In this document: positions 2,087-27,190 of the stretch, piece by piece
How the letters are laid out: each line of letters begins with the position of its first letter
How positions within the stretch are numbered: position 1 is the first letter of the stretch
Assembly: GCA_022574205.1 (NCBI GenBank)
Contig: JACZSL010000001.1
Span: 5,447 to 69,446 of the forward strand
Length of the DNA: 64,000 nucleotides
Origin: Patescibacteria group bacterium
GTDB lineage: Bacteria > Patescibacteriota > Minisyncoccia > Phycocordibacterales > JACZSL01
Reading direction: 5' to 3'
Notes under the pieces: model-generated
What the model was told of the DNA's origin: nothing
Database searches by the model: none
The model's input: only the letters and a program-made list of their open reading frames with translations
Translations under genes and position numbers: made by a program

Positions 2087-2112
2087 GACGTAAGGACGCA
2101 CGTCCTTACGTC
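2087..2112. repeat. perfect 26-bp palindrome gacgtaaggacgcacgtccttacgtc
   Basis: Read directly from the sequence. The two 12-bp arms are exact reverse complements. Confidence 0.7.
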
Positions 2113-2347: not shown

Positions 2348-2399
2348 GTGGACATAACGCACGAAACTTGCTTATGTCCTGAGTGGAGCGAAGGAGAAC
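2348..2399. repeat. 52-bp direct repeat, copy 1 (gtggacataacgcacgaaacttgcttatgtcctgagtggagcgaaggagaac)
   Basis: Near-identical to 3012-3063 (3 mismatches). It contains the internal hairpin ggacataa..ttatgtcc. Confidence 0.85.
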
Positions 2400-2433
2400 A
2401 AACTACATTCAAGGATCAAACTCTCTTATTTTC

Positions 2434-2934
2434 TTAAAGTTTATATTCTTCAAAAAACTCTTTGAGTTCTTCTTTTGTCCACCATCCAAAATCATCTGGA
2501 ATTGAGTTTTTATCAAATAAGATTACTTCTGTTACTTCTTGATTGGTCCGTGGGATATCTGCTAATTCAGCAATAACATATGGTGTAAAAGACCATTGGT
2601 TGTCTTTATTTTGAACATCAGACTCAATATCAATTATCTTATAGTCCTTCACTCTAACACCAGCTTGATCTTTAACAATCCTATTGACGCACTTCTCGAT
2701 TGATTCCCCGTACCGGATTAAATTGTGGCAAAAATAAAGTAAACCATTAGGATAATCTTTCGCCTTAGGTGGCAACTCGTGTTCGGGTATCGCGTTTGGA
2801 CGGCGTAAGGCAATATATTTACCATCCTTTTTTAGAAGAATCTCAAAAGTGATATGCAAGCCGCCACTTGCTTGTTTAGCAATTGGAGGAGCAAAATTTG
2901 CCTCTTTATTTTTCCAATCATATTCAAAAGTCAT
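2434..2934 (-). CDS. Nudix-like hydrolase (degenerate Nudix box); start taken at internal ATG (MTFEYDW..)
   Basis: The segment GESIEKCVNRIVKDQAGV approximates the GX5EX7REUXEEXGU Nudix box. The longer ORF version would read through the upstream repeat. Confidence 0.4.
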   Translation of the reverse strand: MTFEYDWKNKEANFAPPIAKQASGGLHITFEILLKKDGKYIALRRPNAIPEHELPPKAKDYPNGLLYFCHNLIRYGESIEKCVNRIVKDQAGVRVKDYKIIDIESDVQNKDNQWSFTPYVIAELADIPRTNQEVTEVILFDKNSIPDDFGWWTKEELKEFFEEYKL

Positions 2935-3011
2935 AGATAAATTATACCAAAAGTTCCAACATAAAGTTGGGTAGGTTAAAAATATGTTGAGAAATAAAGA
3001 TAAATTTGATT

Positions 3012-3063
3012 GTGGACATAGCGGACGAAACTTGCTTATGTCCTGAGTGGAGCGAAGGAGAAC
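3012..3063. repeat. 52-bp direct repeat, copy 2
   Basis: Matches 2348-2399. Both copies are in the same orientation and flank the Nudix-like gene. Confidence 0.85.
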
Positions 3064-3238
3064 CGCATGCATGAATGGATATTCGAAGCGCCCACTTTGG
3101 CTCGCGCCAAGCGAGACAGGTCAGAGGCGATTTCTGTGCTAAATAGCGAAAAAACAGCTTTGGTTTAGGTACAGTTGACATACTTAATCTCAATGATATT
3201 ATTGTCTGGGTCTTGGACCTTAACAATATAGTTATTCT

Positions 3239-3820
3239 ATGGAAATAAGGAGTTTTATTGTGAATAATTGGAAAAAACTTTCCAGCGGCGTTCTCGGCGT
3301 CTTTGTTGTAATTGGACTTTTGTGTGCAATTACGGGCTGTGGAGGCGGAGGTGTTGATACACCACCACCACTTTCATCGCCACCTCCAGTTGACTCCGGT
3401 TTGCCTCCGGATCCCGGAGAAGCAGGTCTCGTAGGTCTTCTCGGTGTTGACTCAGATAACGATGGTGTGCGTGATGACATTCAACGATACATTGCTCTCA
3501 CTTATCCTGATTCTGAAAAGACGCAAGCTGCGTTGACGGAGTTTACCAAAGGTATGCAAGAAGAGTTGGTTAATGCTGAGGACAAGGAATTGTCGATCGA
3601 GATTGCCATCAAAGGCAATATGATGATTTCCTGTATTAAGTACATTAATCCTGAGAATGGTTCGAGGATTTGGAGGGAACTTCGTGCAGAGATCTTAAAT
3701 ACTGAAGAGAGGTCTCGTGCATACATACAATACAACGATCAACTTGGAGGGGAGGTCTTTAGTCTCTTCCCCAGAGCTGCCAGTTCTTGTGGTTTTGACG
3801 TAGATTCACTTCCAAACTAA
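3239..3820 (+). CDS. lipoprotein (signal peptide + lipobox ..LCAITGC, then GGGGVDTPPP linker)
   Basis: Hydrophobic N-terminus ending in Cys, then a Gly/Pro-rich linker. It lies 18 nt upstream of the hydrolase gene. Confidence 0.6.
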   Translation: MEIRSFIVNNWKKLSSGVLGVFVVIGLLCAITGCGGGGVDTPPPLSSPPPVDSGLPPDPGEAGLVGLLGVDSDNDGVRDDIQRYIALTYPDSEKTQAALTEFTKGMQEELVNAEDKELSIEIAIKGNMMISCIKYINPENGSRIWRELRAEILNTEERSRAYIQYNDQLGGEVFSLFPRAASSCGFDVDSLPN

Positions 3821-3837
3821 TCTGAAGGAGACGAAAA

Positions 3838-5115
3838 GTGAACAGAATATATCTTGTACTGCTTGCAGTGCTTTTCGCGGTTGTTCCATTTACTGTTGCC
3901 GCTCAGGGCGTTTGTGAAGTCAGAGAGGTGAGTACTGTTGTGGTGTTTGGCAATGGAATTAACACTCCCGAAAAAGATGCTTACGACTTACTTGAGGTAT
4001 TAGAAAAACGTTTAGAGGCAAAACTGCCAGCTGATAAGTTTGAGGGGCTGGAGTTTAACATCGCCTACAATCGCACTGCGGGAATCCTGCTTGACCTCTT
4101 GGAAGCTGCAAAAGACAAGTATCTAATCGATGCAACCAGAGAAATCAGAGATTTCTCAATTGCTTTCTGGAGAGCTCTTGGATACTTGGATATTCTTCCG
4201 GATTGGTTTCAGGAGGCCGCATTGGAATCTGCTGAAAGTCTTACCAGTGCTTCGCTTGTAAACGACAGGGATTTGAGCAACCATTTGGCTCTCTATCGTT
4301 CGAGCATACTTGAAGGCAAAACCGTGCTTTTGGTCGCTCATTCTCAAGGCAATTTCTTTGCCAACAGAGCGTATGAAATTCTCTATGAGGGCTCAAATCC
4401 GATAACAACACAAAGCTTCGGCATAGTGTCAGTCGCAAATCCGTCAAGTTTTGTCGGAGGAAACGGCCCTTATTGGACACTTCATGAAGATGAGGTGATT
4501 AAGAGCGTTGCAAGATGGTCCGCAAGGTTTCTACAACCACCTCCTCTTGTTTCTAACATCGGTAACGACCCAAATGCAGAGCATGATTCATTGACCCACG
4601 GTTTTGTGACATCATATCTTGTAAGAGGAACTAATAGTGAAGAGAAGATTCTCGCTGGCATCGAGACGAGTATTGGGATGCTTGAAATTCCGTTTCCTGT
4701 TGCAGAAGACGGCATTATCACTGTAACGCTTACATGGGGAGTAGAGCCTGACGTTGACCTGCACGTGTTTGAACCAAACGGAACACATGTCTACTATGCC
4801 AATCGATTCGGAATTTCCGGATTTCTGGACGTGGACGATGTTACGTCGTTTGGCCCGGAGCATTACTTTGTCGGGTGCGACACTCTGGAAGAAGGTATGT
4901 ACCGGATTGGTGTCAACTACTTCAGAGGCTTCAATCCTGAAGTTGCACTCGTGCAAATACAGGCAGGCTTTATCATACGAAGCTTTGAGACTCCGCTTGA
5001 AACAGCTGTCGGCTCTTCGGGCAATAACTCACCGATTCTTGTCGCTGATGTTATTGTCGGCATAAACGCCGACGGCGTCTACGAGTTTAGTATAATGTCC
5101 CTTGGTGTTCAGTAG
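3838..5115 (+). CDS. secreted alpha/beta-hydrolase (lipase/esterase/cutinase-like nucleophile elbow AHSQG) with C-terminal beta-sandwich (pre-peptidase C-terminal-like) domain
   Basis: Signal peptide MNRIYLVLLAVLFAVVPFTVAAQG. The nucleophile elbow is LVAHSQGNF. The C-terminal segment TLTWG.EPDVDLHVFEPNG is PPC-like. Confidence 0.6.
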   Translation: MNRIYLVLLAVLFAVVPFTVAAQGVCEVREVSTVVVFGNGINTPEKDAYDLLEVLEKRLEAKLPADKFEGLEFNIAYNRTAGILLDLLEAAKDKYLIDATREIRDFSIAFWRALGYLDILPDWFQEAALESAESLTSASLVNDRDLSNHLALYRSSILEGKTVLLVAHSQGNFFANRAYEILYEGSNPITTQSFGIVSVANPSSFVGGNGPYWTLHEDEVIKSVARWSARFLQPPPLVSNIGNDPNAEHDSLTHGFVTSYLVRGTNSEEKILAGIETSIGMLEIPFPVAEDGIITVTLTWGVEPDVDLHVFEPNGTHVYYANRFGISGFLDVDDVTSFGPEHYFVGCDTLEEGMYRIGVNYFRGFNPEVALVQIQAGFIIRSFETPLETAVGSSGNNSPILVADVIVGINADGVYEFSIMSLGVQ

Positions 5116-5547: not shown

Positions 5548-6489
5548 ATGACTATCTTCATAATCACCCATCAGGCAGGATTTGAGGTTGATCCAGTTAT
5601 TGACAGATTAAAAAGTCTCAAACTTCCTTTTGTTCGCTTTAATCAGGACGATGGCGACAATATTTCTAAAGTCGGATTTCTTCGGTCAGATAGCAAGGAA
5701 AATATCTTTTGGACTAGCGACAATAAATCAGTTTCTTTAACCAATGTTGGTTGCGCGTGGTTTCAACAACCCCCGCCATTCACTGGGCAACCGGATAATT
5801 TTGAACAGGCTGTACAAAGAAACAATTTAATAGCATTTCTTGAAGCCACGTTTGACTTTTTGCCAGTAAAATGGCTTAACAGGGTAGCAAACGCGCGTCG
5901 AGCGGCAAATAAAGTTTTGCAGCTACACCTTGCTCCCTCAGTAGGATTAGCAGTTCCGAATACATGTATTTCAAATGACCCACTTACAGTACGCTCGTTT
6001 TGTTCCAAGGGACCGAGTATTGTTAAAAATCTCAATTCCTCATGGATAGCACAGGAGAATGATGCCGTCGTGTCCTCCACAAAGTTCGTGCAAGATGACT
6101 ACATAAAAGATGACCAAGCAATTATATTCTGCCCTCTCATATATCAACAATTCATTGAGAGAAGATATGATTACCGTGTAGTTATACTGGGAGACGCAAC
6201 GTTTGTATCTCGGTGTGATTCAACACTTGGTGATCCCGCAGATGTACGCGTTGACAACAAAACGGGAGCTAACTTCTACCGGGATAAAATACCTCCTGAA
6301 TATATTGAAAAGCTCAAAAATCTAATGGAGATCTTGGGTGTCGACTACTGTTCTGCAGACTTCATTGAGGACCGCGGAGGCAAAATCTTCTTTTTGGAAA
6401 TGAATATCTGCGGTGCCTGGTGGTGGATGGATGAACTCCATGGGGGTGAAATACTTGATTCTTTCGTGAAATACCTGACAACTCGATGA
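5548..6489 (+). CDS. ATP-grasp ligase, RimK/MdnC-like (RiPP/graspetide-maturase type)
   Basis: The N-terminus TIFIITHQAGFEVDPVIDRL and C-terminal FFLEMNICGAWWW resemble the ATP-grasp peptide maturase fold (E-x-N...W). Confidence 0.55.
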   Translation: MTIFIITHQAGFEVDPVIDRLKSLKLPFVRFNQDDGDNISKVGFLRSDSKENIFWTSDNKSVSLTNVGCAWFQQPPPFTGQPDNFEQAVQRNNLIAFLEATFDFLPVKWLNRVANARRAANKVLQLHLAPSVGLAVPNTCISNDPLTVRSFCSKGPSIVKNLNSSWIAQENDAVVSSTKFVQDDYIKDDQAIIFCPLIYQQFIERRYDYRVVILGDATFVSRCDSTLGDPADVRVDNKTGANFYRDKIPPEYIEKLKNLMEILGVDYCSADFIEDRGGKIFFLEMNICGAWWWMDELHGGEILDSFVKYLTTR

Positions 6490-6571
6490 GCCATCAAGAT
6501 GTGTTATCAGCGGTGGTGTGTACACTTCACATCACCGCTATTTTTTAACATATTAAATATTAAAGCAACCT

Positions 6572-7090
6572 ATGAAACTGCGAGAACAACTGGATAAAAT
6601 AATACATATTAACAAAGGTGAAAATTGGTGGAAGCCAAGGTTATTTAAAGATATAACACTCCCACAGCTTCCGAAAGAATTAAAGATTCTTGAATTTCCA
6701 CCTCTCAAAAACAATAATTACAACTGTTTTATTCATACACTCGGTCTCTCCAAGGATGTTGGAATTATAAAAAATAGTGGCGGTTTTATTTATGACACTT
6801 TTTTCCAAAAATTGATTGATAAAAAGGCGCTTATCCCTACAGACCATCCCAAAAACGGAGACTATATTTTATACAGAGACTCCCAAAATTATCCCGACAA
6901 AATCACCCATTCAGGTGTTCTTGACAATGGGAAAGTGGTGTCAAAGTGGGCGTGGGGACCACTTTTGTGCCATGACGTTTTTGATGTTCCCGCGTCTTAT
7001 GGAGACGAGATTTCTTACATAAAGGCAGTCGATCATAAAAAAGCACGGGATCTCTACTGGAAGTATAAAAAGTTTAATAAACTTCCATAG
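6572..7090 (+). CDS. papain-fold (NlpC/P60- or CHAP-like) Cys/His hydrolase candidate
   Basis: Candidate Cys sits in NCFIHTLG. Downstream, GDYILYR....ITHSGVLDNG resembles the GD..ff....HvgIy His motif. Confidence 0.35.
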   Translation: MKLREQLDKIIHINKGENWWKPRLFKDITLPQLPKELKILEFPPLKNNNYNCFIHTLGLSKDVGIIKNSGGFIYDTFFQKLIDKKALIPTDHPKNGDYILYRDSQNYPDKITHSGVLDNGKVVSKWAWGPLLCHDVFDVPASYGDEISYIKAVDHKKARDLYWKYKKFNKLP

Positions 7091-7433
7091 AAGAGTATTA
7101 CGACACACGAGGCTCAACATTGGGTGTATCGGGTGTGGCTTTTCGTTACTCTTTTTCCGTGTTTAGATGCTGTGTATTAACAATGGGGAAATATGCTAGT
7201 ATGGTATAAGGAAAAGTGTAATTATAATTAACACTTGTATGGCGAAAGGTAGAAATCATCAAAAAAGAGAGAAAAAGAAGCCGAAGAAGAGTAAGAAGCC
7301 TCATATTTTCTAACGCTTGTTTTATATTTGCTCGTGGCGTAACCACCACTGTGTGAGAATACCCCCGATCTCTATCGGGGGCACCTTTTATAAAAATTTG
7401 CATTGTTGAATACTGATAGTTAAACTGAACAAA

Positions 7434-8351
7434 GTGACTACCATAGAACAATTAAAAAAGAGTAAAAATATATATGACATTAAGGCGGTTAAACTGACCA
7501 GCTGTATTGGTTTGCTAAAGAAAAGATGTACATCTGAAGTTTTGCGTGAAATAACTAAAAATTCACGATTAATTAATGTTTATGACATTACGTATCGCTC
7601 ACAAGGACATAAAGTTAAAGGTTTTATTGTCGAGCTAAAAAAACTAAAAGGGAAGTTACCATGCATTATTTATAATCGTGGCGGGTCGGGAGAATTTTGC
7701 GCAATTAAAATCGGGGAAACATTTCTGCGGTTGGGTAGGTTTGCCAAATGGGGATACATAGTTATAGCTTCACAATATTCTGGAAACGCGGGAAGTGAAG
7801 GTAAGGATGAAGTTGGCGGAAGTGATATTGAAGACGTTTTAAATCTTAAAAAGATATTAAAAAACCATCTGCACGCTGATGAAAAAAGAATCGGTATGTT
7901 TGGTATTAGTCGTGGAGGGATGATGACATATTTATCTCTTGCGAGAGTAAAGTGGCTAAAAGCAGCTGTATCGATTGCAGGACCAACAAATTTTAAGCGT
8001 GAAGAAAAGTTGAGGCCAGATATGAAGCGGAGGAACAAAATGTTCTTTGGGGGAAGTAAAAAGGCGCTTAGAGATCGTTCTGCCGTTTATTGGACTGATA
8101 AATTTACCAAGAAAACACCACTTCTCATGCTTCATGGCACTGCGGACTGGCGCGTAAGTCCGTTGGATTCGTTGGATTTGGCAGAAAAGCTTTATGAAAA
8201 TAAGGTCCCGTATCGCTTAATTATGTACGAAGGTGCAGATCATGGATTAAGTGAAGTTCGTGAAGAGGCAATGCTAGAGGTCAGAAAATGGTTTGATAAA
8301 TATCTAAAAAATAACGGAAAATTACCTGATTTAAAACCACACGGCAAATAG
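7434..8351 (+). CDS. S9-family (prolyl oligopeptidase/acylaminoacyl peptidase-like) alpha/beta serine hydrolase
   Basis: The nucleophile motif is GMFGISRGG. LMLHGTADWRV and EGADHGL form the Asp/His part of the triad region. Confidence 0.65.
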   Translation: MTTIEQLKKSKNIYDIKAVKLTSCIGLLKKRCTSEVLREITKNSRLINVYDITYRSQGHKVKGFIVELKKLKGKLPCIIYNRGGSGEFCAIKIGETFLRLGRFAKWGYIVIASQYSGNAGSEGKDEVGGSDIEDVLNLKKILKNHLHADEKRIGMFGISRGGMMTYLSLARVKWLKAAVSIAGPTNFKREEKLRPDMKRRNKMFFGGSKKALRDRSAVYWTDKFTKKTPLLMLHGTADWRVSPLDSLDLAEKLYENKVPYRLIMYEGADHGLSEVREEAMLEVRKWFDKYLKNNGKLPDLKPHGK

Positions 8352-8437
8352 AAACAAAAGTAAACAAAGAAGGGAAAAGAAGAAGCCGAAGAAGGCTAAA
8401 AAGTAGCTTAAACGGCTTATTTTCTGGGTAATTAGAC

Positions 8438-8507
8438 GTTCTATGCGCGAGGACCGACCTCGTGTGTGGACCGTTCTGTGCGCGAGGACCGACCTCGTGT
8501 GTGGGCC
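8438..8507 (+). repeat. 35-bp tandem direct repeat x2 (gttctRtgcgcgaggaccgacctcgtgtgtggRcc), each with internal cgagg/cctcg hairpin
   Basis: Two adjacent units differ at two positions. They lie 160 nt upstream of the 8670 gene. Confidence 0.85.
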
Positions 8508-8669
8508 TCGTTGTGTAGTGGAAAAGGCGCAATACCTTGCAGGAGGTTGTGCTTTTTTGAGAAGGTTGTACAATTTGGGGTAGACAGTGTTCTAAAATCA
8601 TGTTGTTTTTAGGACATTTTTTGACATTTATACATATTCTGTAAACAAACTTACACCAGGAGGTGTACC

Positions 8670-10337
8670 ATGAAAACACAATTTGGTTTTCTAAAGCTCT
8701 CGCGAGTGGTTACGCCACTCTTCCTCTTCTTTTTTCTGACAAGCTGCGGAGGTGGAGGCGGAGATACGCCCCCACCGCCACCACCTGTGGCCGATAACCC
8801 ACCCACCGTATCGATAGATTTGCCAACAAATGGCGCGACTGTGTCCGATATGGTTTCAGTCGAAGTAACGGCATCCGACGACAGGGGGGTTTCAAAAGTT
8901 GAACTCTTTGTCGACAATGTGTTGTCGTCGTTTATGACATCGGCGCCGTATGACTTTAGTTGGGATTCAACGGCGGTTGCAGACGGAGCGCATATCCTTA
9001 AGGTGGTTGCAACTGACACCAATAATCAGACCGCCACCAGTCAAATCACGATAACAAGTGATAATGGTCCTGTTACATTTCGCATAGACAAGCATCTATT
9101 GACGCCAGTGGCGGTTTACAAAGATGAACTTCCCACTGCTCTTATCACGTATCAAATAGAGATGCAACTTCCGGAGGGTTGGACAGCTTTTGTTCGATTT
9201 AACCGCAATACATTTGTGGTTGGAAACCATGACCTTGTCAATATTCCAATCGAGGATGACGATGGCGACGGTGTTTGGGAAGTAACTTTTGCTACCGGCA
9301 TTCCAGAACCTACTATTGAGTCGCGCGATGGAAAAACGGGTTATGTCAATATTCACATTTTCCTTCTTGATGAAAATGGTATGGAGGTTTTCATTAATTC
9401 TCCAAACGGAGCAAGCTCTAGAACATATCTGGGTGTAGTAGACCGTTCGATTAACTCCACCTTGAGCGCCACGTCCTCTCCTTCAATCATGAGGACTCGC
9501 TCCGCAATATTTTTGCGCGCGGATGACTTCCAGGGAACACTTCAGGATGTCCCAAGAGTCACGCGAACTGTGTACAGCGTCTACGACGATCGTTTTGACT
9601 ATCTGATTGTGTCAAACATTGGGTGGTCATACGGAACTGGTCCAAGAGGCGGGGGTATAAATCCTGCTTCTTTCGGTAGTGCGGGACGTCTCAAAGCAAG
9701 AGCATGGATGAATGACAGCCACAGCCATATAGGTGCAATACACGAAATACTGCATCATCGTCTGTTTTTCTTCAACGATCCCGCTCTTAATATGACCGTA
9801 GGAGATCTTAGGGGAGTTCATATGGGCGCCTGTAGTGACATTGGCCCCGTGTCCATAGGAAGATTTCTGACTGACAATGGAGACGGAACATCCACTTCGG
9901 GAGAACTAAGAACAGCCGATGGCGGTCCGTTAAGTCAACTCGCACTTCGGATGGCGGAGATATCGGCCTGGTGGAATGGTTTCCTTCCGTCGTTCACGCC
10001 TTTCAGGTGTGTGACGGATGAAAGCGTAGATGTGTGGTCCTCTGAACCAATATCAAATTCGTTGATTTCAACAATTGACGAAAATGCGGTCATATCTGTC
10101 TACGGCAATCCACCCTTGTCATACGCAACAGGTCAAAAGGATTATAACGGCATTCTGCTCGTCATATCCCAAGACGGATTTCCTGACGCGGCAACAGCTG
10201 ATTATTTCACGGCGCTCGGAGATCATCTGGCCGGAACAAGCGCCGGATACATGACGAGCAAATTCTTTGCAAGTCCCGGAAGTTTTAACTGGACTACCCG
10301 TGGCGAAGCAATACTGTCGTTTCCGACAGTTCCGTAG
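8670..10337 (+). CDS. lipoprotein zinc metallopeptidase (HEILHH) with N-terminal Ig-like domain
   Basis: Signal peptide plus lipobox (LTSCGGGGGDTPPPPPP). An Ig-like segment VSVEVTASDDRGVSKVELFVDN follows, then the HExxH motif HEILHH. Confidence 0.6.
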   Translation: MKTQFGFLKLSRVVTPLFLFFFLTSCGGGGGDTPPPPPPVADNPPTVSIDLPTNGATVSDMVSVEVTASDDRGVSKVELFVDNVLSSFMTSAPYDFSWDSTAVADGAHILKVVATDTNNQTATSQITITSDNGPVTFRIDKHLLTPVAVYKDELPTALITYQIEMQLPEGWTAFVRFNRNTFVVGNHDLVNIPIEDDDGDGVWEVTFATGIPEPTIESRDGKTGYVNIHIFLLDENGMEVFINSPNGASSRTYLGVVDRSINSTLSATSSPSIMRTRSAIFLRADDFQGTLQDVPRVTRTVYSVYDDRFDYLIVSNIGWSYGTGPRGGGINPASFGSAGRLKARAWMNDSHSHIGAIHEILHHRLFFFNDPALNMTVGDLRGVHMGACSDIGPVSIGRFLTDNGDGTSTSGELRTADGGPLSQLALRMAEISAWWNGFLPSFTPFRCVTDESVDVWSSEPISNSLISTIDENAVISVYGNPPLSYATGQKDYNGILLVISQDGFPDAATADYFTALGDHLAGTSAGYMTSKFFASPGSFNWTTRGEAILSFPTVP

Positions 10338-10369
10338 CTTCACGCAGTTTACAGACCAATGTAGATTTA

Positions 10370-10399
10370 CCCGCTCTTGCAATGAGAGCGGGTTTTTTT
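10370..10399 (+). terminator. hairpin cccgctct-tgcaatg-agagcggg + T7
   Basis: Canonical intrinsic terminator directly after the 10337 stop. Confidence 0.6.
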
Positions 10400-10529
10400 A
10401 TTCATCACAGTAGGGTGTGGGGGTGTGTATAACACCACTATACTTCAGTTCATTTTCGCAATACAATACAGACCAAGAAAGCCGTGGAATGCGGCAGAGC
10501 TTGTTTTTATAACATTTTATATTTCTATG

Positions 10530-10991
10530 GGAAACAAACACACGCTATTCACTATTATTGTCATAGTTATCGTGGCCGTTGGTGTATATCAGATTTTTGA
10601 TTCTGGAGGTAATTCCGGCGGGTCTGCAGTAGTTGACAAAGAAAAGGCAGTCGAAGCTGCTTTTGAGGAACTTCTGGATACTCTGAACGTGAACGTGGTC
10701 AGACTTGCAGACAATGACGCCAATGGGCTATATCTGGTTCATCCAGACACCGGCATGACGTTCTACACAACTCCCGGAGAATGTGTCGGGGAGTGTTTGG
10801 TCAGGTGGCCGCCTCATACGGCCAAACAGGCGTTTGAGGATGGAAGTATAGGAACCACGCTTCGATCTGACACGGGAGAATACCAGTACACATGGAAAGG
10901 AGAAGCGCTTTATACATTTACTGACGATGAGTTTCCAAACAGTGTTTTAGGCGATGGATTTAAGGATGTTTGGAGGATTGCAAGGCCATAA
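10530..10991 (+). CDS. secreted/membrane-anchored protein with COG4315-like (Y.Y..D...GDG..W) motif; start at MGNKHTL
   Basis: TM/signal segment followed by a short Gly/Ser-rich linker (DSGGNSGGS). The C-terminal region YQYTWKGEALYTFTDDE...GDGFKDVW is COG4315-like. Confidence 0.45.
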   Translation, partial: GNKHTLFTIIVIVIVAVGVYQIFDSGGNSGGSAVVDKEKAVEAAFEELLDTLNVNVVRLADNDANGLYLVHPDTGMTFYTTPGECVGECLVRWPPHTAKQAFEDGSIGTTLRSDTGEYQYTWKGEALYTFTDDEFPNSVLGDGFKDVWRIARP

Positions 10992-11007
10992 TGTTTAGTT
11001 CGCGTAT

Positions 11008-13002
11008 ATGTCAGCGCAAAATATTTTCAGCATAAACAGAAAAAAACTCTTTCTAGTTCTCATAGTGCTTTTTGCCGTGCTGGTTTTTGCATTTCCACAA
11101 ACCACGTCGGCGGCATCTATAGCAACCACCGGACAATCCGCGGATGGATTTCTATGTAGTGATTCTTGGACTACGCCTTTTATGAGTACTGCCATCACCT
11201 GGGCTACAAACCAAGGTGTGCCAGGGCCGGATGTTCTAAACATGAGAAATGATATTTTTAGTTTTTTTGGGGCTCCAGGCGGACCAGAAGGAAATATAAA
11301 AACATTGTCAGATAGCAGTGGAGTTTTAAGTTGGAATCTTCGTCAAGTTCAGGGAATTCCTGGGGATGGTCAACGTTGCCAGGCGAGAATCACCGCGGCC
11401 ACTAGTTTTCCACCTCCTCTACCACCAGAAATAACAATAGACGCAAATGGAAATGATCCAGAAACAATAACAGAAGGAGAGAGTGTAATAATAAACTGGT
11501 CTGTTGCAAATAATAATTCTGGCAGTTGCTCTGCAAGCGGAGACTGGTTTGGGTCGAAAAATCCAACAGTAGGCAGTGAGTCCCAAGGTTCACCGAGCGC
11601 AGGACCATATACCTACACATTAGAGTGTACTAACTCCGACGGCTCTGATACCAAGTCTGTAAACGTTACCGTCAATTCTGCACCTCCAGAACTCACTGTC
11701 ACTCCTCCGTCCCTTGCTTTTGGGGATGTGACTGTGCTCTCCCCATCATTACTTGACTTTACTGTAACGAACACGGGAGGTGGAACGCTTTCAGGAGATG
11801 TTCTGTCCGCCGGTCTCACTACCCCGGAATTTGAGTGTTTAAGTAACTGTTTCTACGGTCCAATTTCTGTCGGTGCCCCATGGGATGTCACAATACGTTT
11901 CATTCCAACTGACACGATAAGCTACAGTGATACAGCAATATTTTCTTGCACATCAGGGTGCAGTAATGCTGATCAAAGCAGAGATGTGACAGGAAACGGG
12001 GTTGCGGGGCCGCCGCCAACAGCTGACTCGTTTGATCCTCCAACCGCTACAATTGCACAAGGCAGCACTGTCACACTTACATGGACGAGTACAGGCGCAG
12101 ATCCGGACGGGTGCACAATTGATGACTCAACCACAGGAATTCCGTACACCCCTCTTGCCGAAGATGGAACTTTGGATGTACAGCCTGACTCTGACACAAC
12201 ATATACTCTCACCTGTTCAAATGCATCCGGCGCATCGAACGCGCTCACATCAGTTATTACCGTAAATCCTCCTCCACAGATCACAGATTTTAGAGCCACA
12301 CCAGACACATTTACTGCTCCGGGATCCTCCATACTTGATTGGGATTCTACTGGAGCGACAAGTTGCTTAGGATCTGGATTTAATACAGGTGGAGCAACAA
12401 ACGGTTTTGTTACTGTCTCACCAAGCGTCACAACAACATACATGCTAACGTGCTCAGGTCCTGGCGGACCAGATCATGTTCTGACTGTTGACGTGACTGT
12501 GAACGAGCCGCTGAATGTAACTTTGGACCCGGGAGATAGTAGTGTGGTCGAAGGACAATCAACAATTCTCAGTTGGGATGGTGGAGGAGCGACGAGCTGC
12601 ACAGGATTTGGATTTAATACAGGCGGAGCAACAAGCGGTAACGTGCAAGTGACACCAGTGGCACCTGCGTCAACATACAGAGTGACATGTACTGTTCCCG
12701 GAGACTCAGACACCGCTGAAGTAATAATAACGGTAAAAAGCCCTGCAATTAGCATTAGTGTTAATCCTCGGATAGTAATTCCCGACAGGACAATAGTGAT
12801 ATCGTGGACGACAGTAGACATGGACTCCTGTGAATTGCTTGACCCCGGGGGCATTGGTGTTGCAAGCGGTATCAATAGTTCCTACACCACGCCAGCAATC
12901 ACAGCTGACGGCACGTATACGCTAAACTGTACCGCATTGGGCGAGCTCTTTTCAGCCACAGTCATGGTAAAAATATTCAGCCCACGGTTTGAAGAAATTT
13001 AG
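11008..13002 (+). CDS. large secreted surface protein with repeated Ig-like beta-sandwich domains
   Basis: Signal peptide present. Three ~90-aa internal repeats follow (e.g. TGGATNGFVTVSPSVTTTYMLTCSGPGGPD and TGGATSGNVQVTPVAPASTYRVTCTVPGD). Confidence 0.6.
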   Translation: MSAQNIFSINRKKLFLVLIVLFAVLVFAFPQTTSAASIATTGQSADGFLCSDSWTTPFMSTAITWATNQGVPGPDVLNMRNDIFSFFGAPGGPEGNIKTLSDSSGVLSWNLRQVQGIPGDGQRCQARITAATSFPPPLPPEITIDANGNDPETITEGESVIINWSVANNNSGSCSASGDWFGSKNPTVGSESQGSPSAGPYTYTLECTNSDGSDTKSVNVTVNSAPPELTVTPPSLAFGDVTVLSPSLLDFTVTNTGGGTLSGDVLSAGLTTPEFECLSNCFYGPISVGAPWDVTIRFIPTDTISYSDTAIFSCTSGCSNADQSRDVTGNGVAGPPPTADSFDPPTATIAQGSTVTLTWTSTGADPDGCTIDDSTTGIPYTPLAEDGTLDVQPDSDTTYTLTCSNASGASNALTSVITVNPPPQITDFRATPDTFTAPGSSILDWDSTGATSCLGSGFNTGGATNGFVTVSPSVTTTYMLTCSGPGGPDHVLTVDVTVNEPLNVTLDPGDSSVVEGQSTILSWDGGGATSCTGFGFNTGGATSGNVQVTPVAPASTYRVTCTVPGDSDTAEVIITVKSPAISISVNPRIVIPDRTIVISWTTVDMDSCELLDPGGIGVASGINSSYTTPAITADGTYTLNCTALGELFSATVMVKIFSPRFEEI

Positions 13003-13021
13003 GAGGTAGATATTGAAGAAA

Positions 13022-13056
13022 AAGAATCCTTGCTTTAAAGCAAGGATTCTTTTTTG
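13022..13056 (+). terminator. hairpin aagaatccttgc-tttaaa-gcaaggattctt + T6
   Basis: Perfect 12-bp stem, again built on GAATCCTTG/CAAGGATTC. Confidence 0.6.
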
Positions 13057-15450: not shown

Positions 15451-15733
15451 CTACTTATGAAACTGGAAGGCGAGGGAAACCGAGTGCGGAAGGTATTCAT
15501 CATAGGTTTGACTCTGAAGGTCTTAAACAGATGCGGAAGAGTAGATAGAGTAGATATGGTAGATTGGGGCGCTGTTGTGGTAAAACACACAGCGCCTTTT
15601 CATTTTACCCCCACACCTTTCATGGCGTTGTGGTTTTTGCTAAGTAAGTCAATATGGTGGTGTACACAGAATTTAATGATGAATTTAGTTATTATTGCAG
15701 TATGTTAAACAAACCACGTTTCGCCACGCCATT

Positions 15734-15777
15734 AAAGGTGTGGGGGTTTACATATAAAGGTGTGGGGGTTTACATAA
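15734..15777 (+). repeat. 22-bp tandem repeat x2 (aaaggtgtgggggtttacata)
   Basis: Adjacent near-identical units. An inverted partial copy, acccccacaccttt, lies at 15607-15620. Confidence 0.8.
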
Positions 15778-15825: not shown

Positions 15826-17118
15826 CTAGGGTGTAACGTATTCTATTTGCCTAAGCCCAAAATCGTTCGGACCACGGTCGAGGATTATCGTATCAGCGAC
15901 TGGCGGGGAAGTAGGGTCTGGCGCTTTGGCAACCTCTTCTGTCGGAGGCGCTTCCGGCATTTCTTCTTCGGTTTCCGATACCTTTTTCGGCTTGAACTTA
16001 ATAGGAATACCGCCAGGATCAGGCGTCGCCACAATCCAAGTATTGCCTAAGAGCGCTCGAGTGAAGGATTTTCCGTCGGTAATTGCACCACCTCCACCAA
16101 ACCCTGCAACAGAACGTTCAGATGAAAATGCCTTTGAAATGCTCGTAAGAAGATTGAGTCCACGGCCGCCTGTCGTGACACTGCGGTTGGCAGTCACTGA
16201 CTCCGGCATCGCCACAAGGTTAATTTCCCCAACGCCTTTTACATACCTCAAGACATACTTTGCAACGTCTGCTTGTATTGCCCCCAAGGGATTTATTTTC
16301 TTTGACTCTGACTCTGCGGTCACAATCCCAAGGCACTTCTGCGATCCTTCCGGCAATAAAAACCTCACCGTGTCAGCACGGCTTTTTCTTGCTTTAGCCA
16401 CGAGGTTCTGGTGTGGGACAAAAACAATGCGCGTGCCGCCAACCTTTCCTTCCTCCGGTATAAGAGGCTTACCGCGAGTATACTGCTGTTCGCACTCAGA
16501 GTTAAACCACTCTGCCAACCTTATTCCTCCTTCGGCTGCGTCCACTGACTCATTGAAGAGCTGTGGTTCCGGCAAAAATGGAGTACTGACATGCAGTATA
16601 CCCGGCAGTGGTTCGGGCGAGACAAACGTAACGGTCTGCGTTGGAGCAACATTTACGTCTCCGGTGGAGACGTTTACGTCACCTGTGGTGAGACTCACGT
16701 CGCCGTCGTTAACCGTCACACTTTGGTCACCGGTTCTTATCGCGCCATCAGCAATATTTACGCTGCCGCCAGTTGCCGTGGCACTACTACCTTCTACGTT
16801 AACCGTGTTGCTATTATCGTTCTTGTTAACGTTTTTGTTTTTGATGTCGATATCGTTCTTGTTAACGTTTTTGTTGTGAATGTCGATATCGTTCTTGTTA
16901 ACGTTTTTGTTGTGAATGTCGACTGTGGCACTACCCCCATACGCGGTCGATTTAGCAACCGCTTTCGCGCTTTGGCTTTGCTTCTGACCCTGCTTTTGCT
17001 TCTGTTTCTGACTCTGCTCCTGATTTGGAGCCGACGGTTTGTATCGATCATCTGCGAACGTGGTTGTCGACGCGAAAAGCGCAATAACAAACAGTACAAA
17101 CAACATTTTTGTATTCAT
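15826..17118 (-). CDS. secreted protein with KQ-rich region and 12-aa tandem repeats (DIHNKNVNKNDI x3)
   Basis: The signal peptide is MNTKMLFVLFVIALFASTTTFA. The repeats and low-complexity region are read from the translation. Confidence 0.55.
   Translation of the reverse strand: MNTKMLFVLFVIALFASTTTFADDRYKPSAPNQEQSQKQKQKQGQKQSQSAKAVAKSTAYGGSATVDIHNKNVNKNDIDIHNKNVNKNDIDIKNKNVNKNDNSNTVNVEGSSATATGGSVNIADGAIRTGDQSVTVNDGDVSLTTGDVNVSTGDVNVAPTQTVTFVSPEPLPGILHVSTPFLPEPQLFNESVDAAEGGIRLAEWFNSECEQQYTRGKPLIPEEGKVGGTRIVFVPHQNLVAKARKSRADTVRFLLPEGSQKCLGIVTAESESKKINPLGAIQADVAKYVLRYVKGVGEINLVAMPESVTANRSVTTGGRGLNLLTSISKAFSSERSVAGFGGGGAITDGKSFTRALLGNTWIVATPDPGGIPIKFKPKKVSETEEEMPEAPPTEEVAKAPDPTSPPVADTIILDRGPNDFGLRQIEYVTP
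16815..16922 (-). repeat. 36-bp tandem repeat x3 inside the 15826-17118 CDS
   Basis: The units are tatcgttcttgttaacgtttttgttKtKaatgtcga. Confidence 0.85.
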
Positions 17119-17234: not shown

Positions 17235-17283
17235 CTACCTTTAAAACAGCGTTATTTTCTGGTACTATTTTGCCGATGGCAGA
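17235..17283. repeat. 49-bp direct repeat, copy A (ctacctttaaaacagcgttattttctggtactattttgccgatggcaga)
   Basis: About 85% identical to 19518-19568. It covers the last 11 codons of the 17252-17764 gene and includes a degenerate trpS-like start ATGGCAGA. Confidence 0.8.
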
Positions 17284-17764
17284 GAAGGGATTGCTTTATT
17301 CCTCTTTTATATTTTTCAAGTGAGGGAAGACCGAGTGACTCTCGTCGCTTATCTACATTTTTTTCGTCTCTTATGGGTAGAAAAGCAACGCTACCATTTT
17401 TTACTTTGTATTGTGTGCCGTACATTTGCTCACCACCTGAAATTACTTTAATTTTATCTACCAACATCGCCTCATCTTTTCTTTCTACATTTGAATCATT
17501 CTGTCGGTGCATTTCTAAGTATTGCTTCATAAGGGGAATATCACCAGAGTGTAGAACCAATACTAACATTGCTTTATATGTGTTTTCTCCGTATTGCTTT
17601 GTGACAATACCATGTTGTTTAAGAATTTGTTTAACCCTTGTTGTATTCTTTTTCACTCGCTCCAGCCAGATTCGTCTGTCAATTTTGCGTTGAGAAAATG
17701 CAGCGATTATTTCTTGATCGTTTTTGAGAAGCCCTCTTAGCTCTTTGATTATATCTTTCGTCAC
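17252..17764 (-). CDS. hypothetical protein (170 aa), last gene of graspetide cassette
   Basis: GTG start. Its C-terminus is encoded by repeat copy A. No family recognised. Confidence 0.45.
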   Translation of the reverse strand: MTKDIIKELRGLLKNDQEIIAAFSQRKIDRRIWLERVKKNTTRVKQILKQHGIVTKQYGENTYKAMLVLVLHSGDIPLMKQYLEMHRQNDSNVERKDEAMLVDKIKVISGGEQMYGTQYKVKNGSVAFLPIRDEKNVDKRRESLGLPSLEKYKRGIKQSLLCHRQNSTRK

Positions 17765-17783
17765 ATTCTCATTCTACAAAAAG

Positions 17784-17813
17784 GGCCGCGAACACACAAA
17801 CGTGTTCGTGGCC
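17784..17813 (-). terminator. hairpin ggccgcgaacac-acaaac-gtgttcgtggcc followed (minus strand) by cttttt
   Basis: Sits directly after the precursor ORF and 6 nt before the next gene start. It looks like an attenuator. Confidence 0.5.
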
Positions 17814-17853
17814 TTGCTGGTTACCCTAATCACCGACTGATTTGTCGTGTCGG

Positions 17854-18009
17854 TTAGATGGTGTCACTACAATCGGAATAAGGATCCTTCGTGTCGGTTT
17901 CCATCGCAATGCCAGGTTCACTGGCATCTGCCACATCCACCTCAACTTGTTCCGCAAATTGAAACATGAAGGGGTCCAGCGGTGTTGAAGGATCGTCGCT
18001 CTTTTTCAT
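17854..18009 (-). CDS. candidate graspetide (microviridin-like) precursor peptide, 51 aa: MKKSDDPSTPLDPFMFQFAEQVEVDVADASEPGIAMETDTKDPYSDCSDTI
   Basis: GGAGA lies 5 nt upstream of the ATG. The leader has PFxFxF like the PFFARFL motif. The C-terminal core TDTKDPYSDCSD is T/K/S/D-rich. The ORF is 75 nt downstream of the ATP-grasp gene. Confidence 0.5.
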   Translation of the reverse strand: MKKSDDPSTPLDPFMFQFAEQVEVDVADASEPGIAMETDTKDPYSDCSDTI

Positions 18010-18084
18010 ACATTTCTCCAATCGGCCGTGTTGATTCAGAGTCGTTGTAGCTTCAGATTTACTCTAACAAAAACTTGTTACTTG

Positions 18085-19095
18085 TCAACCGTGTAATAAG
18101 TCTATCAGAGCTTGCGAAATCGGTAGCCCCACCTCAAGTTCGGATGGTAGCCATTGTCCTTGAGGGTTAATTTCAAAGAATGTATAACCATCTCTTTCTG
18201 AATAACCTAAATCTATACAACCAAAGACTAGCCCTAGCGAAAAAGTTATATCACGGCAGAGTGCCGCAATCTTAGTGGGGAGAATATGCTCGGAGTAAAT
18301 TCTGCGATAGTTATGATGTCTCCAATCAACGCCATGGTTGTATCCATAAAGAGATTCGCCCACAATTTTTACTGCAAAGACCTTTTTACCCACCACCGTA
18401 ACGCGTACATCAAATTCCTTTTTTACCTCCTCCTGTAGAATAAATGGGCAGAGAGGAATACTGTCCAGATGTGCCTTAATCACTTTTTGCGACACCCGTC
18501 TAGTATATATGACTCTATTAAGCCTCTCCTTATCCTCTTTTGCGGGATTCAGTCGCACAAAACTACTGCAAACAGGTTTCACTATCATGGGCTTACCACT
18601 AAGATGTTCCAAAAAAGCAAGTGCCGCCTTCCGAGAATTACCAACACACGTTTCAGGGATACGCCATCCGATGCGTTGTGCAACGTGTAGCTGGTATGGC
18701 TTACGACCAGATATTCTTGTTGCCTCAGGCTCGGAAACCCACCTCACACCGTTGAGTAAGTGTGGAAAAGACCTTACGTATGCTTCCGTCTCCTCCAATA
18801 TATATCTCTCTTTCATGTCATAAGGCTCAGCTCGGTACTTGCCGCGAGGACGTCGCCACCAAACGCTCTTAACATTCTCCACAGAGAAGTTAGCGGCACT
18901 AGTGAGGAACCTTCTGTCTGGGCCATTTTGTCCGACTAGATACGATGATTCGAAACCATTGGGGTATCCACCTATGTCAAGTGTGACGTGGTCAACTCCA
19001 CGCTGATTCATTCTCTCTTGCACATATTTTGCGTGTGCGTCAAGAGAATGAGAAACAATTAAAACAGTGTTCTTCTGCATTTCAACTCTCCTCAA
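18085..19095 (-). CDS. ATP-grasp ribosomal-peptide maturase (MdnC/MvdD-like)
   Basis: N-terminus TVLIVSHSLDAHAKYVQERMNQRGVDHVTLD. ATP-grasp C-terminal motif TFFEINPQGQW. Confidence 0.65.
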   Translation of the reverse strand: MRRVEMQKNTVLIVSHSLDAHAKYVQERMNQRGVDHVTLDIGGYPNGFESSYLVGQNGPDRRFLTSAANFSVENVKSVWWRRPRGKYRAEPYDMKERYILEETEAYVRSFPHLLNGVRWVSEPEATRISGRKPYQLHVAQRIGWRIPETCVGNSRKAALAFLEHLSGKPMIVKPVCSSFVRLNPAKEDKERLNRVIYTRRVSQKVIKAHLDSIPLCPFILQEEVKKEFDVRVTVVGKKVFAVKIVGESLYGYNHGVDWRHHNYRRIYSEHILPTKIAALCRDITFSLGLVFGCIDLGYSERDGYTFFEINPQGQWLPSELEVGLPISQALIDLLHG

Positions 19096-19410
19096 GGTAC
19101 AGTAAATAAACTGAGCAGATTATACTCTGTTTATGTATTTTAGTCAAGGTTTCCGCAATGGTTCAATGGCATGTAATCGAACCTTGAGTATGTTGGGATT
19201 TGTTGTGTGTGCCGTATACCTTATTTTAGCCTCTAAGGTGATGCAAAGGTATTGAAACATTACGGCTTCTTAACAATGACTGATAATGTTTCAGTAATTT
19301 AACGCAGAGGAAAGCAAAAGCTCCGTGCCGTAAGGCGCGGGGTTTTTTGTAAAGAGTGTAGCTTTTGGAGATTATATGTCACAGAAAACATTCCAAACTC
19401 TCTTGAGAGT

Positions 19411-19473
19411 TGGAATGAGAATCCTTGATTTAATCCTTGATTTAATCCTTGAATTAAATCAAGGATTCTTTTG
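19411..19473. repeat. composite palindrome agaatccttga-(tttaatccttga)x2..-attaaa-tcaaggattct + T-run
   Basis: 11-bp inverted arms with internal direct repeats. It sits near the right end of the cassette, between the divergent ATP-grasp and trpS genes. Confidence 0.7.
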
Positions 19474-19517
19474 ATCTCCACCCTTGTGCGAGGGGAGCCA
19501 TCGTGTACATATAAAAA

Positions 19518-19568
19518 CTACCTTTAAAACAGCGTTATTTTCTGATACTATTTGACCATTATGGCAGA
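19518..19568. repeat. 49-51-bp direct repeat, copy B (contains the real trpS ATG)
   Basis: Matches 17235-17283. Its reverse strand would read VCHNGQIVSEN*, a degenerate copy of the 170-aa protein's C-terminus LCHRQNSTRK*. Confidence 0.8.
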
Positions 19569-20514
19569 CAAGCAAAGACTACTCTCTGGCATCAAGCCGA
19601 CAGGGAGACTCCATATAGGTAACTATTTCGGCGCTATGCGGCAGTTCGTTGAACTGCAGGATAAGTATACAAGCTATATTTTCATCGCTGATTACCACGC
19701 ACTAACTTCGGTACAAAACGCGGAGAGTCTTCAAGAGCTCATATTAAACACCGCTATTGATTATCTTGCAGTCGGCTTAAATCCCAAAAAAGTAGTACTT
19801 TTCAAGCAGTCCGATGTACCGCAACATACAGAGTTAGCATGGATTTTTAACTGTATTACTACAATGCCATATTTACAGCGCTCCCACGTATTTAAAGATG
19901 CGCAGGCAAAAAATAAAGAGATTGATGTTGGAACATTTGTTTATCCGATGCTTATGGCGGCAGATATTTTGCTCTATAGTCCGGACGTGGTGCCGGTGGG
20001 TGCTGACCAGAAGCAGCATATTGAATATGCGCGGGACACAGCGCAAAAGTTTAATAATATTTTTGGAGAAACATTTAAACTTCCTAAAGAGTATACGCCA
20101 AAAGACAGCGCAACAATTCCTGGAGTTGATGGGCAAAAGATGAGTAAGAGCTACAATAACACAATTCCGTTGTTTGGCTCGAGGGATGATGTAGAAAAAG
20201 CAGTAATGGGTATTGTTACAGATTCAGGGGGTGATTTTCCACAGCACGTGTACGCAATACACAAGCTCTACAAAAGTGAGGACGAGCTAAAAAATGTCTA
20301 TGATGATAATAAGGGTAACTATAAAGCTTTAAAAGAAGCCTTAATAGCAGATGTTGAAGAGGTCGCTCGACCACTACGAGAAAAGCGTGAAGAGCTCACA
20401 AAAGATAAGGCATATGTCCTCTCTGTGTTGAAAGAGGGTGGCAAGATAGCGCGTGAAATAGCCGAAGAAAAAATGAAAGAGATTCGTGAAAAAATTGGTG
20501 TAACGTTGCAATAA
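19561..20514 (+). CDS. trpS: tryptophanyl-tRNA synthetase
   Basis: Class I motifs TGRLHIGNYFG and KMSKS; size about 318 aa. Confidence 0.9.
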   Translation: MADKQRLLSGIKPTGRLHIGNYFGAMRQFVELQDKYTSYIFIADYHALTSVQNAESLQELILNTAIDYLAVGLNPKKVVLFKQSDVPQHTELAWIFNCITTMPYLQRSHVFKDAQAKNKEIDVGTFVYPMLMAADILLYSPDVVPVGADQKQHIEYARDTAQKFNNIFGETFKLPKEYTPKDSATIPGVDGQKMSKSYNNTIPLFGSRDDVEKAVMGIVTDSGGDFPQHVYAIHKLYKSEDELKNVYDDNKGNYKALKEALIADVEEVARPLREKREELTKDKAYVLSVLKEGGKIAREIAEEKMKEIREKIGVTLQ

Positions 20515-26929: not shown

Positions 26930-27190
26930 ATGTACTACGTCTATTTGTTAAAAAACAAGAAAGATAAGAAGATGTACACTGGAAGTACCAATAATCTACG
27001 GAAACGCTTGAAGGAGCACAACGATAAGAAGTCTACATGGACTAAGGCGAGTACTCCGTGGCAATTAATATATTACGAAGCGTGTCTAAATGGAGACGAT
27101 GCTAGGTCGAGAGAGAAATATTTAAAATCAGGAACTGGGAAACGTTATCTCAATAATAGAATCAAGCGTTTCCTATCTCTAACGGGATGA
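26930..27190 (+). CDS. small GIY-YIG nuclease-superfamily protein
   Basis: The start YYVYLLKN...YTGSTNNLRKRLKEHN carries the GIY-YIG core. Confidence 0.7.
   Translation: MYYVYLLKNKKDKKMYTGSTNNLRKRLKEHNDKKSTWTKASTPWQLIYYEACLNGDDARSREKYLKSGTGKRYLNNRIKRFLSLTG

Follow-up and report, generated by a model that had tools for sequence, protein, structure and literature searches.

How does a small biosynthetic operon come to lie directly upstream of an essential gene, between two direct repeats, when no recombinase accompanies it? This question is raised by a 64,000-nucleotide (nt) stretch of a Patescibacteria group bacterium (assembly GCA_022574205.1, contig JACZSL010000001.1; this whole 64-kb stretch is hereafter the window, and its position numbers are used throughout), in which three minus-strand genes of a graspetide system, a kind of system for peptides made by the ribosome and modified after translation (RiPPs), are found immediately upstream of trpS, the tryptophanyl-tRNA synthetase gene. 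Patescibacteria have tiny genomes with few recognisable mobile elements, and the ways in which they gain and lose accessory genes are poorly understood. A first-pass annotation had described the locus as an inserted cassette with a duplicated target site or att-like junction. The reading favoured here, to which we assign a probability of roughly 0.55, is that of an accessory graspetide cassette without a recombinase, which would have been inserted by a Campbell-type crossover and later shuffled by host recombination at short repeats. It draws on the repeat itself, the identities of the genes, the conservation of the gene trio elsewhere, the polymorphism of the locus in its population, and a hybrid junction observed on one further contig (L009).

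The flanking repeats and the trpS promoter

The two copies of the repeat, copy A (17235-17283) and copy B (19518-19568), are both read on the plus strand. Their first 36 nt (17235-17270 and 19518-19553) are near-identical, with 35 of 36 positions matching and one mismatch, and a gapped alignment prolongs the similarity through a 2-nt indel to 45 of 51 columns, ending at ATGGCAGA, or to 48 of 55 columns (about 87%), ending at ATGGCAGA(G/C)AAG. Differences pile up at one end: the first 36 nt have one, whereas six of the last 19 columns are mismatches or gaps. On the left the repeat breaks off sharply, as had been claimed, since the flanks before CTACC are unrelated between the copies. The repeat is not of low complexity and has no fold of its own (z = -0.2), and no third copy was found in the window when up to three mismatches were allowed. 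A chance or low-complexity pair was ruled out by dinucleotide-preserving shuffling, which gave such a pair in none of 100 shuffled sequences, and an assembly artefact is likewise ruled out because at least five independent metagenome assemblies contain both copies. The direct repeats of about 50 nt reported in the first-pass annotation, and their character as something other than low-complexity sequence, were therefore borne out by the alignment.

Copy B contains the trpS start codon (ATG at 19561), as had been noted before, placed 9 nt past a -10 element in what appears to be the working trpS promoter (TTTAAA-17-TACTAT with TG, an extended -10). The motif TGnTAnnAT stands 5-9 nt before the trpS ATG in about 25 of 30 start regions of relatives, often with TTTTC ahead of it, and because the motif is shared so widely, trpS in this clade is taken to be transcribed from an extended -10 promoter into a leaderless mRNA, copy B then representing the promoter plus the first four codons. 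In a generic promoter scan this site was left out, each of its hexamers agreeing with the consensus at only 4 of 6 positions, and the assignment rests on the comparison of relatives. Copy A would be a decayed duplicate of the same unit (TTTTCTGGTACTAT plus ATGGCAGA), in which the promoter part is nearly intact (35/36) and the start region is degenerate (TTTTGCCG--ATGGCAGAGAAGG). Its minus strand supplies the end of the third cargo gene, which encodes a DUF6624 protein; this overlap had been recognised in the first-pass annotation, which counted 11 codons where there are 10 codons and the stop. A tandem duplication of trpS as the origin of copy A was ruled out, as nothing in copy A resembles trpS beyond codon 4.

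The L009 junction and a proposed route of insertion

The strongest support for the repeats as recombination sites comes from L009, a single 1.2-kb metagenome scaffold from a different study that is 98.6% identical to the window over 17235-17935. Its arrangement involves a second repeat family. In the window, a two-hairpin element on the plus strand (19382-19479; z = -5.3) consists of a hairpin termed he (19389-19417) and a terminator-like hairpin termed T' (19418-19469), the latter related to a palindromic bidirectional terminator, T, at 13019-13054 (z = -7.9); a 38-nt segment on the same strand (19480-19517) then leads directly to copy B. In window orientation, L009 begins with the 3' end of a large Ig-like gene, terminator T and 200 nt of new sequence, continues with a homologue of 19382-19517 (he, T' and the 38-nt segment, here directly left of a copy-A-type repeat), the copy-A-type repeat itself, the DUF6624 gene and a precursor remnant up to 17935, and ends with another he-T copy followed by window sequence from 13055 onward. 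The join that leads from 19517-like sequence through a copy-A-type repeat into the tail of DUF6624 has the form of the junction of a circle excised by a crossover between copies A and B, found at another locus, and the position of the DUF6624 segment between two flanking he-T copies at the 13-kb terminator site is the outcome that re-integration through he-T homology would have. The arrangements of the window and of L009 would thus be interconvertible using only two repeat families, and the reverse path, from the L009 arrangement to that of the window, is equally possible. A recent horizontal transfer into L009 is not claimed, as the lower divergence of its DUF6624-coding part can be explained by purifying selection.

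Under the favoured reading, the 2.28-kb stretch 17284-19517 would be an accessory operon whose point of entry into the chromosome was the leaderless trpS promoter with its start codon, both repeats being crossover sites of the insertion event. The incoming DNA would have brought its own, slightly different copy of the promoter and gene start, of about 50 base pairs (bp), and a Campbell-type crossover within the 36-nt near-identical part would have left one copy on each side, such that copy B stayed on trpS, allowing the essential gene to keep its promoter, and copy A was left as a relic joined to the 3' end of DUF6624. The clustering of mismatches outside the first 36 nt fits a crossover core with arms of different origin, although it could alternatively reflect selection keeping copy A as a promoter. 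Movement would depend on host functions acting on short repeats, namely the promoter copy and the terminator-hairpin element he-T; the direction of events, the circular intermediate and the enzyme are what we infer from these arrangements. The conserved part of DUF6624 stops at '..KRGIKQ' and is followed by a tail, LLCHRQNSTRK, that derives from copy A and is not conserved, and in an alignment with the corresponding proteins of other modules the homologues finish 3-7 residues past a conserved 'GIxK', suggesting that the copy-A junction clipped and then re-extended the reading frame.

Structural alleles in the population

Searches by exact protein match brought up 11 contigs, drawn from about eight samples of one population and 99.6-99.9% identical to the window save for L001 (96.4%) and L009 (98.6%). 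The segment 17930-19479, comprising the ligase gene with the two internal promoters, he-T' and the half of the precursor gene that encodes the leader, is missing from six other samples or assemblies of this 99.8%-identical population (contigs L001, L003, L004/6, L005/7, L008 and L010), and these contigs retain DUF6624, copy A and copy B. Because all of them share one junction and two linked single-nucleotide polymorphisms in the precursor remnant, the deletion appears to be an allele of single origin that has spread. Only the metagenome-assembled genome (MAG) that gave the window has the operon intact on record, and exact-protein look-ups of the ligase, the precursor and AspRS found no match on record. 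Three structural alleles are found in nature, namely intact, ligase-deleted and relocated.

A further contig of the population, L002 (sample ERZ27267426), has its position 1 at window position 19518, the first base of copy B, while contig L010 from the same sample runs through this point; the start of L002 may mark a branch in the assembly graph, that is, another haplotype to the left of copy B.

Related modules and other duplicated gene ends

The order of ligase, a peptide of 44-51 amino acids (aa) and DUF6624 recurs in other Paceibacteria at ligase identities of 61%, 53%, 47% and 43% (L012, L013, L014-17 and L098-105, respectively). These copies occupy unrelated contexts, none of them adjoining trpS, and no non-coding ends are common to modules of different lineages. 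The distant relative L013 (53%) offers an independent case of the layout seen at trpS, with a different repeat. Its module (6401-8101) lies between direct repeats of 67 nt (6186-6252 and 8169-8235; 91% identical). In each repeat an extended -10 promoter (TGGTATAAT or TGCTATACT) and an ATG lead into some 20 codons from a fragment of a SET-domain-like gene, and the promoter copy points into the module in the sense direction. A second cassette follows, with genes for an S9 peptidase and a small peptide rich in Gly and Cys; beyond it, a third promoter copy stands ahead of a gene for a small membrane protein and a SET gene that is intact. The two SET-like fragment copies stop at the same codon.

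Duplicated gene ends are also found elsewhere in the window. The C-terminal zinc-ribbon tail of topA (DKTCPNHNPHKL; 45774-45815) has two extra copies, at 45992-46033 and 50320-50361, which are 83% identical to each other and flank a 4.3-kb sugar-modification island with genes for UDP-glucose dehydrogenase, histidine phosphatase and two glycosyltransferases. Since the trpS cassette, L013 and the topA-tail island all show the pattern, the duplication of gene ends around small accessory islands seems to recur. The repeats that bound the L013 module, the topA island and a module at 2.3 kb share no motif, in agreement with the earlier statement that each repeat-bounded module carries a different repeat.

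Further observations concern the other modules. In L013, the second cassette (8236-10408) encodes a 71-95-aa peptide with a Gly/Cys/Asp-rich end beside its S9 (prolyl-oligopeptidase-type) peptidase, and a fused YcaO-nitroreductase gene (2061-4265) lies 2 kb upstream of the graspetide module, the region being dense in RiPP-like genes with promoter copies separating the cassettes. In L014, two fragments resembling tRNA 3' ends (GGAATCGAACC; 7510-7528 and 7803-7821, minus strand), neither of them called as a tRNA, are found just upstream of the module and may have been left behind by integration at a tRNA gene. In L098, a large serine recombinase gene between perfect 133-nt inverted repeats (7252-7384 and 8902-9034) occupies 7204-9034, a stretch that starts right after the tRNA-Ala(cgc) gene beside the module and is absent in L104; a strain variant has a Na/Ca exchanger gene in place of the recombinase. 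An identity of 16 nt (TGACCATTATGGCAGA) was also seen between the trpS start region (19553-19568) and L098 (4622-4637, minus strand), at the start of a 29-aa Cys-rich open reading frame (ORF) divergent from the ligase gene, in the same geometry as trpS and the ligase gene in the window. As homology it was set aside as a probable chance match, since the similarity does not extend further.

The cargo

The first cargo gene (18085-19080, minus strand; ATG at 19080 with a GAGGAG Shine-Dalgarno sequence) encodes a 331-aa ATP-grasp graspetide ligase with an MvdD pre-ATP-grasp domain (PF21068; 2.8e-10, above the cutoff) and a RimK domain. It has full-length matches to MdnC (5ig8; 2e-28), AMdnB (7m4s), MdnB (5ig9; 9e-23) and CdnC (7mgv), keeps the DWR motif, and is 100% identical to NCBI IID26_00120 from a Patescibacteria group bacterium MAG, the next-best homologue, among more than 200, being 61% identical. 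The adjoining precursor gene (17854-18009, minus strand) encodes 51 aa with the leader DPFMFQFAE and the C-terminal core AMETDTKDPYSDCSDTI. When aligned with the peptides in the same position in L012, L013 and L014, the leader has the invariant residues P..F..A and the core G..ME.DTK.P..D.SDT, so the relatives share a leader of the PxxFxxAE type and the core pattern M-E-x-D-T-K-x-P-x-x-D-x-S-D-T. An MvdD/MdnC-type ligase with its pre-ATP-grasp domain next to a short precursor with a core rich in Thr/Ser/Lys and Asp/Glu is characteristic of graspetide clusters, and the identification of an ATP-grasp maturase and a 51-aa precursor-like peptide in the first-pass annotation holds in full. The 170-aa product of the third gene (17252-17764, minus strand), which had been listed as unknown, was assigned by the proposed hidden Markov model search to DUF6624 (Pfam PF20329; 1.6e-16), a published frequent partner of one graspetide type. 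It appears to be a conserved partner of the module, with D16, Q17, H72, D103, Q113, G116, T117 and R141 as invariant residues. Its AF2 model (pLDDT 96) is helical with a beta-hairpin, and a fold search gave no informative PDB neighbour.

The operon looks functional. A strong promoter-like site (19119-19147, minus strand; TTGACT-17-TATAAT, 11/12) precedes the ligase gene, a second (18061-18088, minus strand; TTGACA-16-TAGAGT with TG), which is a consensus match only, precedes the precursor gene, and a terminator-like hairpin with a T-run (17777-17813, minus strand; z = -3.1) separates the precursor gene from DUF6624. The system is predicted to be microviridin-like, with the ligase binding the PxxFxxAE leader and forming ester or amide side-chain cross-links among Thr/Ser/Lys and Asp/Glu residues of the core ETDTKDPYSDCSDTI.

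The microviridin leader carries the motif PFFARFL. The PFMFQFAE leader found here resembles it, the core has a spacing similar to T.K.P..SD, and the ligase aligns end to end with those of the microviridin system (MdnA with MdnB/MdnC), including the MvdD pre-ATP-grasp domain and the DWR motif. In contrast to microviridin clusters, there is a single ligase, no GNAT acetyltransferase and no ABC transporter, with DUF6624 present instead; the order of Thr, Lys, Pro, Ser and Asp positions also differs, and the host is a Patescibacteria bacterium. A closer counterpart has been catalogued recently (Carter et al. 2026, ACS Chem Biol, PMC13097080). In that work DUF6624 is frequent in graspetide groups 18, 20, 23 and 42, and the authors proposed that it may be an undiscovered biosynthetic enzyme; group 42 comprises 22 clusters, 82% of them with PF20329 (DUF6624) and many from candidate phyla (PMC13097080), and none of its products has been characterised. 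The cargo probably belongs to group 42, an assignment for which the representative precursor was compared by eye only. The combination of graspetide ligase, short precursor and DUF6624 is the same, as is the origin in a candidate phylum, here Patescibacteria, and the representative precursor is of about the same size, with ...AME... followed by a C-terminal core rich in Thr/Asp/Ser. However, its core reads GFTTHGTPNDPDSGGTD where ETDTKDPYSDCSDTI is found here, and genomic mobility or flanking repeats are not mentioned in that paper. The cargo would then be a new member of a catalogued but uncharacterised graspetide type, and an intact and compact example whose high-confidence DUF6624 model and invariant residues make it useful for testing the role of DUF6624.

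Alternative explanations

Several results weigh against insertion by a Campbell-type crossover followed by host-driven shuffling. The G+C content of the cassette (0.419) equals that of the window (0.412), giving no compositional sign of foreign origin. The junction clips the 3' end of DUF6624, which has the look of an accident more than of a dedicated att site, and the repeats of different islands share no sequence, so a single dedicated recombinase is not indicated. L009 is one short, repeat-rich scaffold that could be misassembled. Among the 11 contigs of the same population, neither a free circle junction was found nor the empty site that the first-pass annotation had proposed to look for, in which trpS would directly follow the gene for a 430-aa secreted protein (15826-17118). 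Exact-protein look-ups of TrpS, the 430-aa protein and DUF6624 returned only the deletion allele, short contigs or L009, and when JGI metagenomes and viral contigs were scanned for the sequence patterns of the repeat and of the hairpin element, neither gave a match, the absence of the repeat being the part that tells against insertion. (A TrpS scan of species-representative genomes gave a best match of 65% identity, too distant for an empty site to be recognised at the DNA level.) Finally, no repeats flank the L014 module, and L098, whose module sits inside a tRNA gene cluster, has only tRNA genes on either side; L012 and L106 have too little flanking sequence to judge. Because the L014 and L098 copies do without them, the repeats appear to belong to a particular insertion event or site and not to the module. 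Relatives with the same genes and no flanking repeat, which had been named beforehand as evidence against an inserted cassette, thus do exist, yet L013 has its 67-nt repeats.

These points bear differently on the competing accounts. An improbable but serious contender is a one-off illegitimate insertion, in which a replication template switch or end-joining would have attached foreign DNA to trpS at codon 4 and then picked up again some 50 nt upstream, so duplicating the promoter-start segment and leaving the repeats as scars of a cassette that never moved again. Such an event would suit the lack of a recombinase in or near the cassette, a junction that truncates and extends the DUF6624 frame, the repeat-free L014 module and the tRNA genes around that of L098, the unrecovered empty site, and later population changes that are plain deletions with little microhomology. 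However, it would require further recombination in L009 exactly at the repeat edge at 17235, and it sits poorly with the independent promoter-plus-5'-end architecture of L013, where two cassettes end at the same SET-like codon, with the topA-tail copies around another island of the window, and with differences between copies A and B that lie at one end and are not evenly spread. We consider it doubtful that the repeats are true att sites, at which a tyrosine recombinase supplied in trans (the Xer-like protein of 36155-37204 or an integrase encoded elsewhere) would act on a core in the 36-nt repeat, as with satellite islands and elements that exploit Xer. The sharp edges, the near-identical 36-nt core with diverged arms, the presence of a Xer-like recombinase in the window and the attP form of the L009 junction agree with this account, and the core can be read as a dyad, TACCtttAAAA-N6-aTTTTctgGTA, which is weak (7 of 11) and was spotted by eye. 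Against it, the repeats of L013, the topA island and the module at 2.3 kb have no common motif, no dif-like site was identified, and the L009 rearrangement also uses the unrelated he-T repeat, which is a better fit to homology-driven exchange. Very unlikely, in our view, is a purely regulatory duplication, whereby copy A was kept as a working promoter for an antisense transcript over the operon, or for a 15-codon ORF, co-regulated with trpS. Copy A does keep the whole TTTTCTGnTACTAT promoter motif (35/36) and its non-promoter part has decayed, and three plus-strand terminator hairpins (19314-19469, including one at 19314-19349 with z = -4.5) would stop an antisense transcript before trpS, but the origin of the duplication and the architectures of L009 and L013 would be left unexplained, the L013 promoter copy points sense into its module, and residues of the small ORF change between strains.

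Other classes of element were tried and rejected. A transposon or insertion sequence was ruled out by the repeat length (about 50 bp against target duplications of 2-14 bp), the lack of any terminal inverted repeats and of a transposase domain; by the same measure the repeat is too long for the duplicated target site of the first-pass annotation, if that is understood as a transposase-type duplication. For an integron cassette there is no IntI, Rfam gave nothing and the he/T' hairpins lie on the 5' side of the operon and are terminator-like (attC core sites were not looked for). A phage or plasmid origin is disfavoured by phage ligases that are only 27-30% identical and by searches in which plasmid DNA gave no match and no viral contig carried the ligase. 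The gene tables list no recombinase within about 17 kb of the cassette, the nearest being the Xer-like tyrosine recombinase ORF already mentioned, which agrees with the earlier remark that no recombinase is adjacent and that the window's tyrosine recombinase lies at 36.2 kb. Of the usual traits of integrative islands, the locus has direct repeats that include part of the target gene, and it has neither an integrase in or next to the island nor a deviant composition. The idea of an inserted cassette with junction repeats therefore keeps the support of modules at unrelated loci, a polymorphic locus, L009 and L013; as a strict att site the junction is doubtful, no recombinase being carried by the element or adjacent to it.

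If the repeats do recombine without a dedicated enzyme, as the favoured Campbell-type insertion supposes, further small islands of Patescibacteria genomes may have arisen by a similar logic. A far-reaching version of this idea, which we put forward as speculation and think unlikely, is that Patescibacteria gain, lose and reshuffle small operons without a recombinase, by exchange at short copies of the leaderless promoters and gene starts of housekeeping genes and at their terminator hairpins. Every insertion would then duplicate a promoter-start unit, leaving the essential gene expressed, and repeated insertions would build up arrays with promoter copies between the cassettes; trpS, the topA tail and L013 would be instances.

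Comparison with known islands

The tycheposons of Prochlorococcus are reportedly cargo islands of a streamlined genome stacked at one site with partial copies of the target-gene end between them, and they are said to target tRNA genes and to encode a tyrosine recombinase. The L013 array and the topA-tail copies are similar in layout, unlike them in having protein-coding gene ends as targets and no linked recombinase. Another parallel is the microcin H47 island of E. coli, a 13-kb element with imperfect direct repeats and no recombinase gene, which forms hybrid repeats on excision and moves independently of RecA by means of host functions (PMC3191183, PMC5426353). Both are small chromosomal islands for a ribosomal peptide, with imperfect direct repeats and no recombinase gene of their own. 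However, the cassette here measures 2.3 kb, the H47 repeats are not a promoter or gene start, and excision and integration were followed experimentally for H47, whereas here they are deduced from one contig, L009, the only place where the hybrid repeat was seen. Islands associated with dusA integrate in the 5' end of a housekeeping gene that stays functional and are flanked by repeats (PMC4482086), although a dedicated tyrosine integrase is present in every one of them, their size is far greater and they have been shown to form excised circles, in contrast to the cassette here, which is without an integrase. The mode of insertion proposed for trpS would thus be a variant of known recombinase-less islands, with hints of a more general pattern in Patescibacteria.

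Gene neighbourhood and further repeats

Downstream of the repeat, trpS (19561-20514, plus strand) is followed by aspS, pepA, scpA and scpB. The order aspS-(pepA)-scpA-scpB after trpS is kept across Paceibacteria, and the upstream side is lineage-specific; in L027, a homologue of the window ORF 7434-8351 lies directly upstream of trpS. An Rfam search around the region upstream of trpS, covering T-box and riboswitch elements, gave nothing significant.

Further repeats and variable regions were noted across the window. A 76-nt direct repeat (2341-2416 and 3005-3080; 83%) with a hairpin (GGACATAAGC..GCTTATGTCC) surrounds a minus-strand ORF (2434-3072; 212 aa); the ORF has no Pfam match and the repeat no Rfam match. 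Two tandem copies of a 35-nt unit with a GC-rich hairpin (GCGCGAGGACCGACCTCGTGT; 8437-8506) lie between an S9-like hydrolase gene and the first of the Ig-domain surface-protein genes. These latter genes are hypervariable, the window region 8400-12250 being 93-98% identical to L005/L007, with indels, against 99.9% elsewhere, and the place of the window's 664-aa gene is taken in one strain by a gene of 1038 aa. Within the gene for the 430-aa protein, three tandem 36-nt units (16815-16922) encode NKNVNKNDIDI(H/K), and in the intergenic region downstream of this gene a 22-nt unit (TAAAGGTGTGGGGGTTTACATA) occurs in tandem at 15733-15776, with an inverted copy 100 nt upstream (15607-15628); a similar string, GGGGGTTTAC, is found upstream of the L013 ligase gene. 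In the cell-wall cluster, at about 26930-27190, the gene table of the near-identical contig L004 lists a gene for an 86-aa GIY-YIG domain protein between mraY and ftsW.

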